Source: Escherichia coli
GTDB lineage: Bacteria > Pseudomonadota > Gammaproteobacteria > Enterobacterales > Enterobacteriaceae
DNA length: 64,000 nucleotides
NCBI RefSeq assembly: GCF_024223415.1
Contig: NZ_CP100500.1
Direction: 5' to 3' (one strand)
Positions within the stretch are counted from its first letter, which is position 1, and each line of letters starts with the position of its first letter. Both the position numbers and the translations under genes were made by a program. Below, in pieces: positions 1-44,064 of this stretch. Below the pieces are notes generated by a model. It searched no databases, was not told the DNA's origin, and saw nothing but the letters and a program-made list of their open reading frames with translations.

Positions 1-5563
<5,563 letters not shown>

Positions 5564-6051: not shown

Positions 6052-6849
6052 TTAATGAACATTCGTCGCCGAAAACGAGTCTGTATCATTAGCGTGATGC
6101 AGTCTCTGCAAAGGATCTTGTTGATAAAATTGGCAGAAACGTTGCCACAATGAAGGGAAACGAGGAGCAAAAAGTTCTGGGGCGCTAAAGAAATATTCAG
6201 AAAGTACGGCAAAACACTCAGCAGGATCACTGGCAGCATAAGCATCGATGCTCGCCGCATTCTCGCCAACTAATTCGATTTCTTCCTGAATGTTGTTCAT
6301 TGCAGCATGAAGATCGTGTTCCCAGCCAGCAACCTCACGCAACGGAATAAAGGGAACTCCGCTGGCGCGATCGCCGTTACGGGTGTCCAGCTTATGAGCG
6401 ACTTCATGAATAATCAGGTTAAAACCAGAAGCATCAAAAGAATCTTGTATATCCAACCAGTTCAAAACGATAGGCCCTTGCTGCCAGCTCTGACCTGACT
6501 GAACAATACGTTGGTTATGCACCAGACCGATATCGTCTTCCCATTCGTCATCGACCACAAATGGCGCAGGATAAATTAAGACTTCATGAAAACCATCCAG
6601 CCATTCCAGTCCTAACTCCAGAACGGGCAGGCAAAATAGAAGTGCTATCCGGCAGCTTCTTAATGAATCCAGTTCAAAGTCCTGTAAAGGAACAAGCCGC
6701 TTTTGCTGTAAAAAACGTTCGGCAAGAGTGACTAATTTGCTTTGTTCCTGTTCCGTCAGACACGTTAAAAGGGGGATCGATAGTGCTTCCTGCCAGGGAA
6801 GGGCAGTTTGATGTGCTGATTCTTGTACTTTCCAGGGCCACTTAATCAT
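6052..6849 (-). CDS. mtfA: Mlc titration factor A (265 aa)
   Basis: ORF 6052..6888; product begins [28 protein letters not shown] at internal Met; length matches MtfA. Confidence 0.85.
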
Positions 6850-37019: not shown

Positions 37020-37352
37020 GTTTTGTAACCTGTTGTTAATTACTTCCAATCTCACCGCTTGGGGCATGGATGGGGCAAACTCACTCAATTTCTGGTTTAA
37101 AATGGATACCTGATCCTGAAAGTTTTCTGCCATCCACGATCCGTAAACGCGATAACATGTTTTGTCTTCGCTTTGCTCATAGGAAGAGTGAACTCTTTTG
37201 TTAGCCTGGGGTTCCTTCTGATCATTATTGTTCCTGCCTTTATCTCTTGCCACGCCAGAGCCCCCTGGATACACATACACCAGGATGAAAACGGTGAGTT
37301 GTGTTCAAACTGTAGTACAATTCTCTCCAGTATGAACAGGAAAGAATATGCT

Positions 37353-37685
37353 ATGAACCCTTATATTTATCTTGGTGGCGCAATACTTGCAGAGGTCATT
37401 GGTACAACCTTAATGAAGTTTTCAGAGGGGTTTACACGGTTATGGCCCTCTGTTGGCACAATTATTTGCTATTGTGCATCATTTTGGTTATTAGCTCAGA
37501 CACTGGCTTATATACCTACAGGGATTGCTTATGCTATCTGGTCAGGAGTCGGTATCGTTCTGATTAGTTTGCTTTCCTGGGGATTTTTTGGCCAACGACT
37601 GGACTTGCCAGCCATCATAGGCATGATGTTGATTTGTGCCGGTGTGTTAGTCATTAACTTGTTGTCACGAAGCGCACCGCATTAA
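37353..37685 (+). CDS. emrE: SMR-family multidrug efflux transporter EmrE (110 aa)
   Basis: MNPYIYLGGAILAEVIGTTLMKFSEGFTRLWPSVGTIICYCASFWLLAQTLAYIPTGIAYAIWSGVGIVLISLLSWGFFGQRLDLPAIIGMMLICAGVLVINLLSRSAPH; conserved Glu14. Confidence 0.9.
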   Translation: MNPYIYLGGAILAEVIGTTLMKFSEGFTRLWPSVGTIICYCASFWLLAQTLAYIPTGIAYAIWSGVGIVLISLLSWGFFGQRLDLPAIIGMMLICAGVLVINLLSRSAPH

Positions 37686-37853
37686 AAAATAATCATCCTT
37701 GAGATAACAGGAATCTGATTTGTGCATATTATGGCTAATGTTCGGGGCAACTTTATAATTATGATTGCATTTGCGCGATCATTGCGCCTTTTTGCATAAT
37801 GAGATCAATGCACATCAAATAAAATAACGATAGGTCACAACAAAGAGGTTTTT

Positions 37854-38405
37854 ATGAAAAAACTTATCGTTTCAAGTGTATTGGCATTCATAACATTTTC
37901 TGCGCAGGCCGCAGCATTTCAGGTCACTAGTAATGAAATAAAAACAGGAGAGCAACTTACAACGTCTCATGTATTTTCTGGATTTGGGTGTGAGGGGGGT
38001 AATACATCGCCCTCATTAACCTGGTCTGGTGCTCCAGAAGGCACCAAAAGCTTTGCCGTAACTGTGTATGATCCAGATGCGCCTACAGGCAGCGGATGGT
38101 GGCACTGGACTGTTGCTAATATTCCAGCAACGGTAACATATTTGCCCGCTGATGCAGGAAGACGTGATGGTACAAAACTTCCGACTGGTGCTGTCCAAGG
38201 CCGAAATGATTTTGGTTATGCGGGATTTGGTGGAGCATGTCCTCCCAAAGGAGATAAACCCCATCATTACCAGTTTAAAATATGGGCTCTAAAAACTGAT
38301 AAGATTCCTGTGGATTCTAATTCCAGCGGAGCGTTAGTTGGTTATATGCTTAATGCCAATAAAATTGCAACCGCTGAGATAATACCCGTTTATGAGGTAA
38401 AGTAG
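37854..38405 (+). CDS. ybcL: Secreted PEBP-family (Raf kinase inhibitor-like) protein YbcL (183 aa)
   Basis: Signal peptide MKKLIVSSVLAFITFSAQAAAF, PEBP motifs (YDPDAP, HHYQFKIWAL). Confidence 0.85.
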   Translation: MKKLIVSSVLAFITFSAQAAAFQVTSNEIKTGEQLTTSHVFSGFGCEGGNTSPSLTWSGAPEGTKSFAVTVYDPDAPTGSGWWHWTVANIPATVTYLPADAGRRDGTKLPTGAVQGRNDFGYAGFGGACPPKGDKPHHYQFKIWALKTDKIPVDSNSSGALVGYMLNANKIATAEIIPVYEVK

Positions 38406-38414
38406 GATAAGAGT

Positions 38415-39212
38415 ATGCTGGCAAAAGATAGGACTAACCTAAAGATTGAAGAAATACGGATGCATAAACATCATGAGATTCACAGGGTTAAGCCTCTTAT
38501 GCCAGCTTTATGTCGTATCCGTCAGGGAAAAAAAATTATCAATTGGGAGACGCATAGTCTAACTGTTGATAATAATCAGATAATATTATTTCCCTGTGGA
38601 TATGAATTTTATATTGCGAATTACCCAGAAGCAGGTCTTTATCTTGCAGAAATGCTTTATTATCCCATTGATCTAATTGAAAAGTTCCAAAATCTTTATG
38701 CGATAACCGATCAAATTCGTAACACGACAGGTTTCTGCTTACCTCAGAATCCCGAGTTAATATATTGTTGGGAGCAACTAAAAACATCTATTTCCCGAGG
38801 CTTCTCAACGCAAATTCAGGAACACTTAGCAATGGGCGTTCTACTTTCATTAGGAGCACATCATGTTAATTGTTTACTTTTATCAGATAGTAAACAATCA
38901 TTAATAAGTCGTTGTTATAACCTAATGCTATCCGAACCTGGAACAAAATGGACAGCAAACAAGGTAGCGAGATATCTCTACATTTCTGTTTCCACATTGC
39001 ATCGCCGTCTGGCAAGCGAGGGAGTAAGTTTTCAAAGTATATTGGACGACGTGAGGTTAAATAATGCGTTGTCTGCTATACAAACGACAGTAAAACCCAT
39101 CAGCGAGATTGCCAGGGAAAATGGTTACAAGTGTCCTTCTCGTTTTACTGAAAGGTTCCATAATCGTTTTAAGATAACACCAAGAGAGCTAAGAAAAGCG
39201 TCCAGAGAGTAA
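38415..39212 (+). CDS. ybcM: AraC/XylS-family transcriptional regulator YbcM (265 aa)
   Basis: C-terminal AraC HTH ([47 protein letters not shown]...[20 protein letters not shown]). Confidence 0.85.
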
Positions 39213-39503
39213 AAGTATTTTATGAAGGAGCAACAGCATAGATTTTTATTTTGGAAAATAAATACGGCATACTCAACCTATTGGAGCCTGAACAATCCGG
39301 TGACTTCTGCGCTAATCGGGGACGTTTATAAGCACATATAATTGATACTATCTTCCTCCATCACAATTTCAGAAATGCACGTGTGATTTTTTTGCATCCG
39401 GCGTTTGGACTATGTGGAGTTCAAGAGTGGGAAAGTTACAAGAGGTTGAGGGGATAATTAAAGGGATGCTTATGACATTAGATATCCGGATAGGTACGGA
39501 TAT

Positions 39504-39543
39504 CGTTGTTATTAAATCTAGTTCGTTGTTATTAAATCTAGTT
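39504..39543. repeat. Perfect 2-copy tandem direct repeat of a 20-bp unit (CGTTGTTATTAAATCTAGTT)
   Basis: Two adjacent identical 20-mers inside AT-rich non-coding DNA. Confidence 0.9.
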
Positions 39544-40175
39544 TATACGTTAAGATGCAGCTACAGCAGAAATTGCCACTGTTAATTTTTTCATCGTGAG
39601 CCTTTTATTTGAACTATTATTTAAAAATGATGTCACTGCACTACAAATATTCATCCAATCAATGAGATTATTTCAAGATGTAAGTTTTAGTTTCTCATTT
39701 AAATTGTGAAGTAGATCCCTATCTTTATCTGAACTGTTTCTATTGCACACAATGCATGACTATTTTGTGAACGAATATAAATTTGGTAGTTAAATTATAT
39801 TAAAGGTTGTTATTTATGATTGACTCATAATTTATTTATTTAATTTAAATAGCCTAGAAATAACCATGGAAATTATTTGCATGATGTTTGTTTAGATTTA
39901 TTAATGTAATTGAGGTGGTTTTATTTAATACGCAATATAGCGCCGCTTGATATTAGTTCTATTTTTTTTGCGTAAGATAGATGAGACAAACTGAGACGCA
40001 TAATGGTTTGCAAGGCTCTAATACTTTGATGTTGAGGATGTGATGGGGCATGTACGGGGCATAGTACAATGATGTCCATGCTGGTGTAGATAATCTCCAG
40101 GCTTATCCGGTGCGCCGTAAAACCCCGTCCTTCAGGGCAGGGATATAAGGCGTGGTTTTCCACCTGACCAGGTGT

Positions 40176-40595
40176 TTGCTGTTGTTCAATGTATTGGCGG
40201 ATGACGGATATTGGCGCACCTCCGCAGCTACTGGCAAAATAGCCAGGACTCCACAAAACGCCTTTGTAGTAATACCTGACTGCAATATCTGGTCGATCTC
40301 GTCGCAGTCACCTACCCGATACGCCTTTGAGGCTGTTTACCAGACTGGATATCGCCAGTTTGGGAGGATAGTTAATTAACAAATGGACGTGATCTGGTTC
40401 GCCATCCATTTCAACCAGTTCAGCTTCAAAATCAGCACATACATTTGAAAAGTAAGTGCGTAGTTTTTCTGTCGCGTCATGGTCAAAAATCTGACGTCGG
40501 TATCTGGTGACAAAGACCAGGTGAACATGCATCAGGAAAACACAATGCCTTCCACGCCGGATATCGGTTTCTTTTTTCACAGACCAAAGTATCAT
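40176..40595 (-). pseudogene. tnpA: tnpA (HUH Y1 transposase of IS200/IS605 family) interrupted by an in-frame TGA
   Basis: N-part MILWSVKKETDIRRGRHCVFLMHVHLVFVTRYRR...EPDHVHLL (HUH motif) ends at TGA 40308..40310; same frame continues LRRDRPDIAVRYYYKGVLWSPGYFASSCGGAPISVIRQYIEQQ (catalytic Tyr region). Confidence 0.75.
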
Positions 40596-40602
40596 TTGGC
40601 CT

Positions 40603-41811
40603 GTGAAACGACTACAAGCATTTAAATTCCAGTTAAGACCCGGTGGTCAACAGGAGCGTGAAATGAGGCGCTTCGCAGGCGCATGTCGTTTCGTTTTCAA
40701 TCGTGCTCTGGCACGTCAGAATGAGAATCATGAGGTCGGTAATAAATACATCCCTTACGGGAAAATGGCTTCCTGGCTGGTTGAGTGGAAAAATGCCACT
40801 GAAACGCAATGGCTTAAAGATGCCCCGTCACAGCCATTGCAACAGTCACTGAAAGACCTTGAGCGGGCTTACAAAAACTTCTTCCAGAATCGGGCTGCTT
40901 TTCCCCGATTCAAAAAGCGGGGACAGAATGATGTATTCCGCTACCCGCAGGGCGTTAAGCTCGATCAGGAAAACAGCCGTATTTTTCTGCCGAAACTGGG
41001 CTGGATGCGCTACCGGAACAGCCGTCAGGTCACGGGTGTTGTGAAAAATGTCACTGTCAGCCAGTCCTGCGGTAAGTGGTACATCAGTATTCAGACAGAA
41101 AGTGAAGTATCAACTCCGGTTCACCCTTCAGCATCAATGGTCGGGCTGGATGCTGGCGTGGCTAAACTCGCCACGCTGTCAGATGGCACAGTCTTTGAGC
41201 CTGTAAACAGTTTTCAGAAAAACCAGAAGAAGCTGGCGAGACTTCAGCGACAGTTAAGCCGCAAGGTCAAATTCAGCAACAACTGGCAGAAGCAGAAACG
41301 CAAAATACAGCGACTGCATTCCTGTATCGCAAATATCCGCAGGGACTACCTTCACAAAGTCACAACGACCGTCAGCAAAAACCACGCAATGATAGTCATT
41401 GAGGATTTGAAGGTCAGCAACATGTCAAAGTCAGCAGCGGGTACGGTCAGCCAGCCGGGGCGCAATGTCCGGGCAAAATCAGGTTTAAACCGTTCGATAC
41501 TGGATCAGGGCTGGTATGAAATGCGCCGCCAGCTTGAGTACAAGCAGCTCTGGCGTGGCGGTCAGGTGCTTGCTGTTCCGCCAGCGTACACAAGCCAGCG
41601 TTGCGCGTGCTGTGGTCATACAGAGAAAGAAAACCGCCTGTCACAAAGTAAATTCAGATGCCAGGTATGTGGATATACAGCGAACGCCGATGTAAATGGC
41701 GCTCGTAACATTTTAGCGGCGGGGCACGCCGTTCTTGCCTGTGGAGAGATGGTGCAGTCAGGCCGCCCGTTGAAGCAGGAACCCACCGAAATGATTCAGG
41801 CGACAGCCTGA
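40603..41811 (+). CDS. tnpB: TnpB (IS605 OrfB family RNA-guided endonuclease), apparently intact, 402 aa
   Basis: RuvC-I ([12 protein letters not shown]), RuvC-II ([11 protein letters not shown]), zinc finger CACCGH...CQVCG, RuvC-III ([10 protein letters not shown]). Confidence 0.85.
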
Positions 41812-41850
41812 ACGTAGCAGGGATCCTCGTCCTTCAGGGCGTGGAGGATG

Positions 41851-42522
41851 TCAACAAACAGGTTGAATTAACTCCGCGCCCTGGTTTTTGACATTACCTA
41901 CCGCGCGCGATACCGGGTGCCAGGTGAACTGGTTTGCTGGCACACAGCCGTTGGTAGCAATTTCTGATGCTTCTTTACCGCCAATCTCTTGCCGCATCCA
42001 TTCCTGTGCAGCTTCTGGCGACAGAACCAGCGGGCGGCGGTCATGAATATCTACCAGACCCTGGTCTGCTGCTGCAGTGACAATTAAAAATCCTTCGGCT
42101 TCGTCACCGCGCTCAAACGGTGTGCTACCTATCGCGGCCATAAAAACAGGTTGTCCATCAGCGCGATAGATAAAATAAGGCTGTTTTTTGTCGCCTTCTT
42201 TTTTCCACTCAAACCAGCCATCGGCAAAACAGATTGCCCGACCATGTTGCCAGAGCGGTTTAAACATACGACTGGTGGCCGCAGTTTCTACGCGGGCGTT
42301 AATCAGCGGCGGTTTATCCCACCATCCGGGAGCATATCCCCAGAAAACCGGATCCAGATGAAGGTGTTCATCACGTTCACTGAGCAGAAGAACTTTGGTT
42401 CCCGGCGCGACGTTGTATCTGCCAATGGGTTCGGGATCGTAGGGAATATCGCGTTCAATATCTTCCGCGAGAAGCGCAAGGTAATCTTCACGCGTTTGGG
42501 ATTGGGCAAAGCGTCCACACAT
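41851..42522 (-). CDS. yedK: SRAP-family abasic-site processing protein YedK (223 aa)
   Basis: MCGRFAQSQTREDYLALLAEDIERDIPYDPEPIGRYNVAPGTKV..., N-terminal Cys2 nucleophile. Confidence 0.9.
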   Translation of the reverse strand: MCGRFAQSQTREDYLALLAEDIERDIPYDPEPIGRYNVAPGTKVLLLSERDEHLHLDPVFWGYAPGWWDKPPLINARVETAATSRMFKPLWQHGRAICFADGWFEWKKEGDKKQPYFIYRADGQPVFMAAIGSTPFERGDEAEGFLIVTAAADQGLVDIHDRRPLVLSPEAAQEWMRQEIGGKEASEIATNGCVPANQFTWHPVSRAVGNVKNQGAELIQPVC

Positions 42523-42628
42523 AGAAACCTCCTGAGATCATACTGAAAAGAATAGGAGAGGGGGCGGGTAAAATCTATGTGTCAGAGGCAACGATGTTCC
42601 CGCTGTGGGCCACAGCGGGAATGAGGGA

Positions 42629-42862
42629 TTACTTCTGAATTAAATAACGAATGGTCGGCCCGTCTTGCTGAATATCCAGCACCGTATAGCCGTGATTACG
42701 CGCATCCAGTGGAATATTATTGATCGACTGTGGACAGTCGCTCACCACTTCCAGGATTTCCCCTTTTTTTAACTGCGGCATCGCCTCAAGAGTTGCGACT
42801 GCCGGATAAGGGCAGGGTTCACCCACCATATCAAGGCGGTAATCAGGAACGATATTTTTCAT
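42629..42862 (-). CDS. yedF: TusA-like sulfurtransferase-fold protein YedF (77 aa)
   Basis: MKNIVPDYRLDMVGEPCPYPAVATLEAMPQLKKGEILEVVSDCPQSINNIPLDARNHGYTVLDIQQDGPTIRYLIQK (CPxP motif). Confidence 0.9.
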   Translation of the reverse strand: MKNIVPDYRLDMVGEPCPYPAVATLEAMPQLKKGEILEVVSDCPQSINNIPLDARNHGYTVLDIQQDGPTIRYLIQK

Positions 42863-44064
42863 GCGATCTCCTTAGCAGTCTGCGGTGCCGCACGGCGGAA
42901 GAAGCGTTTTTCCCAGCCGATAATCAACATCAGCGCAGTAAACAACAGCAAATATGTCACCAGCAGGCCACCCATCGGGCCAAAGGTTTTCAGCAGGTTG
43001 ATTTTGTCCCAGTCGGTGGCCAGCGCCGGAGCGAAATCATCCCAGTAATACGCCAGAATCGTCGAGCCGATCACATTGCCCAGACCGACCCACCAGTAGT
43101 GCACCTGGCCTTCTACCGCGCGGTACATCCAGCCGGTTTCGCAGCCGCCTGCCAGCACGATGCCAAAACCAAACAGTAAACCACCAATTACCGCGTTTGG
43201 TCCCGCCCACATGATTTTGGGTTCAACGCCTAACTGTACGTAACTGAAGATCCCGATGGCACTCACCGCCATACCGATAATGATTGCTTTCGCCATATGG
43301 GTACGTCCGGTGATCCACATATCGCGGAACGCCGAAGTAAAGCAGATTTGCGCACGTTCAATCAGTAAACCAAAGCCGACGCCAAACAGCATTGCCAGCC
43401 CCAGTTTGGGTTGGTTCATCGCCGTGAGCAGCGCCCAGCCCAGCATGCCGAAAAAGACCAGCATCCCGAGACGAAAACGACGCCGCGCCTGATCCGGTTT
43501 TTGCGTCAGCGGTGAGGCGGCAGAAACTTTCTGCATTTTCACGGGAATACGGAAGATGGGCAGCAGGGTAAAGCGCGCGCCAAACCATGAACCAATGGCC
43601 GTGGCGATGGCAAAGAACCAGGCATGCAGCGAGAACTGAGGAATGCCGGTAAAGAACGCCGCCAGGTTACAGCCCATTGCCAGACGCGCGCCAAAACCGG
43701 CGATAATGCCGCCAATAATGGCCTGCATAATGCGGATACGGCTGCGCGGCATGCGCAGTTTGACATTGTTGGCCCACAGCGCTGCGGCAAAGCAGCCGCC
43801 AAACATGCCGAGGATCATCATCCCGTCGATGCGGGTTAATGGCGATCCTTCCAGATGGATAATTTTAAAATAACCCCACTCTTCAGCATGGACGCCAAAC
43901 AGCTGCAGGAGCTGACCGCCCCAACGGGTAAATTCACCCGTGACAGCCCAAAAGGTGCCAGTAATGCCAAAATAGTAAGTGGAGAGAATACCCGCCGCGA
44001 TGACCGCAGGGATGGGTGCCCAGAATTTAATCAACCAGGCGTGTTTGAATTGCTGCCATGACAT
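42859..44064 (-). CDS. yedE: YedE/YeeE-family inner-membrane transporter (401 aa)
   Basis: MSWQQFKHAWLIKFWAPIPAVIAAGILSTYYFGITGTFWAVTGEF..., overlaps yedF by 4 nt. Confidence 0.85.
   Translation of the reverse strand: MSWQQFKHAWLIKFWAPIPAVIAAGILSTYYFGITGTFWAVTGEFTRWGGQLLQLFGVHAEEWGYFKIIHLEGSPLTRIDGMMILGMFGGCFAAALWANNVKLRMPRSRIRIMQAIIGGIIAGFGARLAMGCNLAAFFTGIPQFSLHAWFFAIATAIGSWFGARFTLLPIFRIPVKMQKVSAASPLTQKPDQARRRFRLGMLVFFGMLGWALLTAMNQPKLGLAMLFGVGFGLLIERAQICFTSAFRDMWITGRTHMAKAIIIGMAVSAIGIFSYVQLGVEPKIMWAGPNAVIGGLLFGFGIVLAGGCETGWMYRAVEGQVHYWWVGLGNVIGSTILAYYWDDFAPALATDWDKINLLKTFGPMGGLLVTYLLLFTALMLIIGWEKRFFRRAAPQTAKEIA

Follow-up and report, generated by a model that had tools for sequence, protein, structure and literature searches.

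The 64-kb stretch of the E. coli chromosome analyzed here (hereafter the window) most probably carries a copy of IS609 in which the transposase gene, tnpA, was killed by two point lesions and tnpB is intact, leaving a non-autonomous element of a kind that is typical of this species; we put the probability of this account as a whole at about 0.85. A dead tnpA accompanied by an intact tnpB is an already known and annotated state of this IS609, and a tnpA pseudogene with an intact tnpB is the typical condition of IS609 across E. coli. In a preprint, Meers et al. reported tnpA in the neighborhood of just ~25% of tnpB genes and a predominance of non-autonomous elements, and the retention of tnpB with decay of tnpA fits this documented norm of the IS200/IS605 family.

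The IS609 copy occupies positions 40107..41854 of the window (1748 bp, with the top strand of the element on the + strand) and was 98.5% identical to IS609 of K-12 MG1655 in an end-to-end alignment covering 1748/1748 bp. The corresponding reference feature, designated "insertion sequence:IS609" (NC_000913.3, 1503161..1504908), contains the pseudogene yncK and a 402-aa insQ. The gene order in the window is fliE, emrE, ybcL, ybcM, an AT-rich spacer, IS609, yedK, yedF and yedE, as part of the E. coli chromosome, and the adjoining of the selenium genes yedE and yedF is a coincidence of location. In K-12, the yedK locus is free of the insertion, and the matching empty site (...CCAGGCTTAT directly followed by CAAACAGGTTG...) shows no duplication. 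Read in the orientation of the window, this K-12 site (...AATCTCCAGGCTTAT directly followed by CAAACAGGTTGAATTAACTCC...) is exactly the left and right flanks of the window copy joined together, such that TTAT-CAAACAGG of the empty site corresponds to TTAT-[IS]-CAAACAGG of the occupied site. IS609 thus inserted 3' of TTAT without target duplication, and insertion 3' of a short motif without a target-site duplication is a hallmark of IS200/IS605 elements. The TTAT at the left end (40103..40106, + strand) was also found in the left flank of 13/13 copies with printed flanks, which were distributed over six chromosomal loci. By analogy with the way the family works, this tetranucleotide is presumed to be the TAM of TnpB as well.

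This arrangement would have arisen when a peel-and-paste IS609, whose tnpA and tnpB are divergent, inserted precisely into the yedK stop codon, 3' of TTAT. This gene (SRAP peptidase; 41851..42522, - strand) had its stop codon split between TG and A, and the right end of the element, ...GTCAA, provided a new TGA, formed from the last bases of the IS. The empty site reads CCT GTT TGA and encodes 222 aa, and the occupied site reads CCT GTT TGT TGA and encodes 223 aa, the product having one extra Cys.

Both ends of the element contain a putative subterminal imperfect hairpin that was read from the sequence of the + strand: CCCCGTCC-TTCA-GGGCAGGG at the left end (40123..40142) and TCCTCGTCC-TTCA-GGGCGTGGAGGA at the right end (41824..41848), the element terminating with ...GATGTCAA at 41854. 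Their common 13-nt core, CGTCCTTCAGGGC, had just two occurrences in the 64-kb window (0.06 expected), one at each IS609 end and both on the same strand. Folding energies of the end hairpins were not better than those of shuffled sequences (z-scores for the hairpins and the omega-RNA ranged between -1.6 and +0.1), and the proposed hairpins are supported by sequence and architecture and not by thermodynamics. The copy thus shows whole-length near-identity to IS609, a gene for a Y1 HUH TnpA (as a pseudogene), insertion at TTAT, absence of a target-site duplication and of terminal inverted repeats, and subterminal hairpins on the same strand, all characteristic of IS200/IS605 and IS609. It lacks the capacity for autonomous transposition that characterizes IS609, as its tnpA has a premature stop before Tyr135 and the same allele was reported inactive in K-12.

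The tnpA pseudogene (40164..40595, - strand; 143 codons and the stop position) was recognized by Pfam, NCBIfam and PGAP. In profile searches with a conceptual translation carrying X at codon 96, it matched the complete Pfam Y1_Tnp model (E=1.5e-41) and NCBIfam transpos_IS200 (NF033573) at 146.5 bits (cut-off 55), and it was 97.9% identical to the intact TnpA of O157. Minus-strand translation of window:39921-40595 gave one frame, M1...EPDHVHLL...KGVSGR*LRRDRPDIAVRYYYKGVLWSPGYFASSCGGAPISVIRQYIEQQQTPGQVENH..., whose sole internal stop within tnpA was codon 96, TGA (tca on the + strand, 40308..40310). The codons of the HUH motif, H69-V70-H71 (40383..40391, - strand), were placed by alignment to H64/H66 of IS608 TnpA, and the codon of the catalytic tyrosine, Y135 in RQYIEQQ (40191..40193, - strand), by alignment to Y127 of the same protein and its ..QYIENQ.. 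motif. The alignment, which included other solved TnpA structures, places the TGA downstream of HUH and upstream of Y135. The initial annotation had described this TGA as the only break of the frame, located between the two motifs, and our translation and alignments agree with it on both counts; the protein would be truncated after HUH and before Tyr135. However, TGG, which it had considered as a possible source of the TGA, is not what intact family members have. Codon 96 is TTA (Leu) in the intact O157:H7 copy, in the B2.3 copy and in the S4 remnant at the same yedK locus, and L96 aligned with Leu/Ile in the solved TnpA structures.

It had also been noted that the tnpA frame runs on through the left end, which translation bore out; the cause, a stop-loss, had been missed. 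Codon 144 (40164..40166, - strand), the natural TAG stop in the intact IS609 of O157:H7, reads CAG in the window, and because of this change the frame runs 81 codons past its normal end. This run-on frame (39921..40163, - strand) passes via the left end into the flank, ends at TAA (39921..39923) and is not a gene; its portion past the left end, being flank, varies between loci. Relative to O157:H7, the two point lesions of tnpA are therefore a T-to-G change (TTA, Leu96, to TGA) and a T-to-C change (TAG stop to CAG). At yedK, strain CFSAN061772 has an IS609 that is 99.9% identical to the window copy and combines TGA96 with TAG144, which indicates that the stop-loss in the lineage of the window is recent or was gained by conversion.

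Several observations agree with the earlier proposal that TnpA is non-functional. In the PGAP annotation, the tnpA of the window is a pseudogene ("internal stop"), and the K-12 copy (yncK) bears both lesions, TGA at codon 96 and the CAG stop-loss. For that copy, the stop was published in 2010 and transposition was reported to be absent (Umenhoffer et al., PMC2891674). Besides the 98.5% identity and the two lesions, the K-12 MG1655 element shares with the window copy the TTAT left flank, the terminus ...GATGTCAA and a 402-aa TnpB. In contrast to the window copy, it is located at ydcL/ydcO (yncK with insQ/ydcM) and not at yedK, it differs by 27 substitutions, and its InsQ has C336Y, at a position that is not a zinc ligand, whereas the TnpB of the window has a private A341E. 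IS609 of O157:H7, which is inserted in a gene of the TetR family, between yjfZ and ytfB, is 98.1% identical to the window copy and agrees with it in architecture, ends and TnpB length (402 aa), but it has TTA96 and TAG144 and encodes a complete TnpA (WP_000604943.1; an uninterrupted 143 aa, named "IS609 family transposase" by PGAP), and is presumably autonomous. The suggestion that the element is immobile held only in part. In cis, the window copy would be unable to excise or transpose by itself, as shown for the equivalent K-12 copy. In trans, by contrast, it could be mobilized, as its ends, TTAT context, tnpB ORF and guide-RNA region all appear intact and an intact IS609 TnpA exists in O157:H7; only such a TnpA would be expected to move it. 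The 64-kb window contained no second TnpA or TnpB able to act in trans and no intact IS609 tnpA.

The tnpB gene (40603..41811, + strand) encodes an insQ-type RNA-guided endonuclease of 402 aa, has a GTG start and is intact, as judged by NCBIfam, Pfam and phmmer. The protein scored 387.8 bits with NCBIfam guided_TnpB (NF040570; curated cut-off 100), contained full HTH_OrfB_IS605, OrfB_IS605 and Cas12f1-like_TNB (TNB/zinc-ribbon) domains in Pfam, and could be aligned over its full length with the ISDra2 TnpB structures 8bf8/8exa (E=5.7e-55, phmmer). Residue alignment to ISDra2 identified the RuvC D-E-D triad as D183 (ISDra2 D191; 41149..41151, + strand), E267 (D. radiodurans E278; 41401..41403, + strand) and D363 (D361; 41689..41691, + strand, codon GAT). 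D183 was present in all in-frame sampled copies, and E267 was likewise seen in sampled copies. Similarly, the zinc finger C334-x2-C337 ... C353-x2-C356 (41602..41670, + strand), which gives the CxxC...CxxC pattern of the family, corresponds to C331/C334/C351/C354 of ISDra2. The only private substitution mentioned above, A341E, lies in the loop that separates the two pairs of cysteines. Thus, the previous statement that the 402-aa TnpB keeps its RuvC and zinc-finger residues was confirmed, and careful alignment to ISDra2 revealed no inactivating RuvC substitution. A promoter scan upstream of tnpB found no sigma-70-like promoter, counts being the same as in shuffled sequences.

According to the architecture of the family, the omega-RNA scaffold is presumed to consist of the 3' end of tnpB and the right end (41700..41854, + strand, the start being approximate). 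By analogy, the guide RNA would be expected to begin in the 3' end of tnpB, to cross the right end and to use ~16 nt of the right flank as guide, and the presumed guide is CAAACAGGTTGAATTA, located inside the 3' end of yedK (41855..41870, + strand). Rfam matches in this region were sub-threshold (HgcC, 41748..41867, E=0.25; RAGATH-18, 41738..41781, E=0.13), and its fold was not better than those of shuffles (z=-0.98). The IS609 copies were too alike for a covariation test of the omega-RNA; the region expected to encode it is uninterrupted. TTAT followed by CAAACAGGTTGAATTA is precisely the empty yedK site, as in K-12. Judging by the mechanism of ISDra2 and Geobacillus TnpB, the empty yedK site, TTAT-CAAACAGGTTGAATTA, would be a predicted cleavage target of the TnpB-omega-RNA complex. 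We found the occupied yedK junction in 1098 genomes and the empty site, as TTAT plus guide, in 1533/5426 (28% of complete genomes). Thus, alleles of this site with and without the insertion coexist in E. coli. IS609 TnpB is among nine candidates purified in a 2026 paper, and our literature search found no activity result for it, including in the portion of that paper available to us.

To place the two lesions in the species, 5,426 complete E. coli genomes were searched with 41-nt queries in which each 28-mer seed spanned the diagnostic base. At codon 96, the TGA of the window occurred at 3371 places in 2727 genomes, compared with 6351 places and 3894 genomes for the ancestral TTA. At codon 144, the window allele, CAG, was found at 6676 places (4199 genomes) and the natural stop, TAG, at 1739 (1558 genomes). 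L96* was present at the yedK, ydcL, yeaR and gltX insertion sites, and TTA alleles were found elsewhere at three of these loci: yedK (S4), ydcL (55989, Z503 and PCP06102) and gltX (99-3311). Two same-locus pairs, B27/PCP06102 and 377323_2f/99-3311, had a common 1-bp frameshift but differed at codon 96, and four gametes with the codon-96 site were observed at 42/68 informative sites. Besides, Y76* was common to the ydcL and tsx loci. The same-locus differences at codon 96, together with the pervasive four-gamete incompatibility, indicate that IS609 copies are mosaics. A single clonal origin followed by transposition is untenable as the sole source of multi-locus L96*, since codon 96 varies on shared backgrounds. 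The simplest explanation is gene conversion between copies, plus recombination between strains, and trans-mobilization of already-dead copies may contribute. The presence of L96* on mosaic haplotypes at four or more loci would then reflect conversion between IS609 copies.

We then compared the two genes of the element in 21 full-length copies (the window copy and 20 others) from the yedK, ydcL/ydcO, ytfB, yeaR/yeaQ, tsx/nrdR and gltX/yfeD loci; these copies form a small sample, are non-independent and recombining, and were picked from BLAST lists. Pairwise Nei-Gojobori dN/dS was 0.285 for tnpB and 1.08 for tnpA, and restricting the comparison to broken-tnpA copies left the tnpB value at 0.29. 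Distinct variant codons were synonymous and nonsynonymous in ratios of 36:53 in tnpB vs 8:35 in tnpA (Fisher p=0.017; 21 copies), and the departure from neutrality was significant for tnpB (p=1.7e-4) and not for tnpA (p=0.59). Disabling lesions numbered at least 8 in the 432 bp of tnpA vs 4 in the 1209 bp of tnpB (binomial p=0.004), i.e., they were ~5.6x denser in tnpA. Although tnpA is 2.8 times shorter than tnpB, it had more of them. It was fully intact in 1/21 copies (O157), and the lesions and changes seen in tnpA comprised the premature stops R33*, E62*, Y76* and L96*, deletions of 5 bp, of 1 bp (two different ones) and of 6 bp (in frame), and the stop-loss. In contrast, the full 402-aa tnpB ORF with a valid start was kept in 17/21 copies, the exceptions being frameshifts in TOK-001 and KE41, loss of the start in Z503 and Q399* in Lstone01; one further copy, SK6988, had C334Y at a zinc ligand. 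At the yedK locus, the S4-type allele has lost the left end, the 3' end of tnpA and most of tnpB by deletion, and many lineages lost tnpB in this way. Across E. coli IS609, tnpB appears to be constrained while tnpA decays. This constraint is only moderate (dN/dS 0.29-0.43) and not universal, and part of the low dN/dS of tnpB could date from an era of active lineages. Taken together, the data fit a history in which tnpA would have been broken in many independent ways and have evolved neutrally, and tnpB would have stayed mostly open under moderate purifying selection.

Two alternative explanations concern the TGA itself. A sequencing or assembly error in an otherwise intact tnpA might be considered, as the allele differs from the intact reference by a single base. 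The same base, however, was present at the 3371 places mentioned above, in 2727 of the 5426 independently assembled complete genomes, including K-12 MG1655; it is therefore a common allele and not a sequencing error, and the chance of an artefact is negligible. Alternatively, the stop might be leaky, with read-through or recoding (e.g., as selenocysteine) yielding some full-length TnpA. The context of the codon, UGA-C, would favor this, UGA followed by C being a leaky stop context in E. coli, and the occurrence of L96* at no fewer than four insertion sites looks as if TGA copies had still moved. Nevertheless, the ancestral residue is Leu and read-through would not restore the wild-type protein; the natural stop is lost as well, which adds 81 unrelated residues; tnpA evolves neutrally and many TGA copies have accumulated more nonsense or frameshift lesions (R33* in CREC-591 and 1-bp deletions in B27 and 377323_2f); and no transposition was reported for the K-12 copy, which has this TGA too (PMC2891674). 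The differences at codon 96 between alleles of the same locus on shared backgrounds also fit gene conversion better. We regard a leaky stop as scarcely credible. For programmed UGA recoding in particular, an Rfam search of positions 39000..43000 found no SECIS or other recoding RNA at E<=1; with Leu/Ile in the homologues at this position, neutral tnpA and an inactive K-12 copy, selenocysteine was rejected.

The open tnpB also admits more than one reading. It might be intact by chance or recency, the whole element decaying neutrally without selection once TnpA was lost. The copies differ by only ~2%, 4/21 tnpB genes are broken and SK6988 has lost a zinc ligand, many lineages with the S4-type deletion at the yedK locus dispensed with most of tnpB, and gene conversion from active copies could restore an open tnpB without selection on each copy. 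Against this, dN/dS differs between the two genes (0.285 in tnpB vs 1.08 in tnpA) in the same copies with the same histories, the synonymous excess and the lesion density both set tnpB apart from tnpA, and tnpB remains constrained among the broken-tnpA copies alone. This within-copy contrast between genes makes neutral decay of tnpB possible but disfavored, and we consider it unlikely. The proposal that tnpB is retained independently of transposition was accordingly supported in one part, by the dN/dS and lesion contrast in the 21 copies; the other part, that TnpB is domesticated, was without support. Under domestication, TnpB would have exchanged its role in the transposon for a host function, for example in RNA-guided regulation of transcription, like TldR, or as a nuclease in defence. 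Moderate purifying selection on tnpB at fixed sites with dead tnpA, and the age and wide distribution of the insertion (yedK site occupied in 1098 genomes), would be in line with this. But all three RuvC residues are kept, the guide position still corresponds to the own flank and the empty site (a selfish configuration), no new partner genes were seen and tnpB is dispensable in many lineages, and we consider such a role very improbable. TldR-type regulators have reportedly lost RuvC residues; the window copy retains the catalytic residues and both transposon ends, unlike a TldR-like domesticated TnpB. More speculatively, IS609 TnpB (InsQ) might be selectively maintained at fixed chromosomal sites after the death of TnpA, either by a TnpA-independent protection of the occupied allele through cutting of empty-site alleles brought in by recombination or by a benefit to the host, an idea to which we give little weight. 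If it were true, InsQ would be a gene drive or addiction module operating at the level of recombination, with its target at the yedK site present in 28% of complete genomes, and the spread of L96* and Y76* over loci would reflect frequent gene conversion between copies stimulated by double-strand breaks.

The preferred reading, an IS609 copy with dead tnpA and intact tnpB, can be compared with better known systems. ISDra2 of Deinococcus radiodurans, the biochemical and structural prototype, has the same TnpB triad and zinc finger and the same Y1 HUH fold of TnpA, and it likewise inserts 3' of a short motif, which also serves as the TAM. In contrast to ISDra2, the window element uses TTAT and not TTGAT, its genes are divergent and not co-directional, its tnpA is dead, and its nuclease activity is a predicted one. 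The window copy also resembles the tnpB-only IS200/IS605 elements (~50 in Geobacillus stearothermophilus, Meers et al.; IS1341 group, ISfinder), which are without a working tnpA, have functional ends, tnpB and guide RNA, are mobilizable only in trans and have a TnpB that targets the empty donor joint. Unlike in these elements, the tnpA remnant of the window is of full length with two point lesions, consistent with an early stage of decay. TldR is similar in that a TnpB-family protein is kept without an active transposase, but its RuvC residues are lost and it has no transposon ends, whereas TnpB of the window keeps D183/E267/D363 inside intact IS ends. The window copy, a standard and correctly annotated IS609 remnant, matters little by itself. 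The ~10,000 IS609 copies present across 5,400 complete genomes of E. coli, on the other hand, provide a clean natural example in which tnpA dies repeatedly (at least eight kinds of lesions) and tnpB stays open under moderate purifying selection, and E. coli IS609 is a convenient, genetically tractable system for the role of TnpB after loss of the transposase. We found no literature on the population genetics of insQ, and the question of what TnpB does after TnpA is gone concerns the population and not the yedK locus alone.

Six IS609 loci were sampled, and at three of them, yedK, ydcO and yfeD, the convergent host gene terminates within the last four bases of the IS609 right end (41851..41854 in the window, 8906..8909 in L002, a locus of the ydcL/ydcO group, and 4244..4247 in the comparison locus L009). 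The TGA stop codon of these genes is supplied by the right end itself (...GTCAA), and in the window YedK has one extra Cys, giving 223 aa vs 222. ATAA, to which the IS609 target TTAT is complementary, has a stop codon within it; thus, insertions at gene ends, which leave the protein hardly changed, may be those that persist.

On the other side of the element, we found emrE, ybcL and ybcM between fliE and yedK (37173..39212), genes which in K-12 are part of the DLP12 prophage. The corresponding position of K-12 (L014, its yedK region) is occupied by yedL, yedN and intG of the cryptic prophage PR-G. To the left of the IS, the window and this K-12 region have only ~17 bp in common (ATAATCTCCAGGCTTAT), which places an island boundary directly beside the IS. 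The ybcM gene was intact in the window (265 aa) but carried a frameshift in CFSAN061772 and TOK-001, both near-identical strains. The interval from ybcM to the IS is a non-coding AT-rich spacer of ~890 bp (39220..40106), with 33% GC vs 49% across the window, which contains a direct tandem duplication of ~20 bp (CGTTGTTATTAAATCTAGTT) at ~39505..39545.

An alternative allele of the yedK locus was observed in strain S4 (L004, 2833..4088) and recurred in seven rows of the BLAST spread list (H82-H88). In S4-type strains, a deletion fuses ~39530 to ~40224 (window positions), such that the AT-rich spacer, the IS left end and the 3' end of tnpA are gone; the allele has also lost most of tnpB and, from yedK, the 3' part. 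The remaining S4 "tnpA" ORF, which was taken as intact by PGAP, is 174 aa long, lacks the catalytic-Tyr region and has TTA at codon 96. Divergence between this allele and the window copy was ~4-5%.

Within the IS, the divergent start codons of tnpA (ATG at 40595) and tnpB (GTG at 40603) are just 7 bp apart (40596..40602), and therefore the promoter of each gene must be located inside the other. A consensus scan, in which counts equaled those of shuffled sequences, yielded no site for tnpB and, on the minus strand, two weak promoter-like sites that fall within tnpB (41417..41389 and 41113..41086). The T-to-G change that created the premature TGA in tnpA has a further effect in the minus-strand mRNA, where it completes a 7-bp inverted repeat (UGACUGC...GCAGUCA; 40308..40345) with a 17-nt loop containing the stop codon itself. 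This repeat showed no likeness to bacterial SECIS elements, and its occurrence at the TGA is probably a coincidence.

Variation was also observed in the TnpB zinc finger. C336Y, in the CACC motif, was present in K-12 InsQ and in most copies at the ydcL locus (sampled loci L002, L008, L016-L018, L020 and L021); based on alignment to ISDra2 TnpB, C336 is not among the four zinc ligands. The SK6988 copy, at the yeaR locus, carried C334Y, and residue 334 is a zinc ligand.
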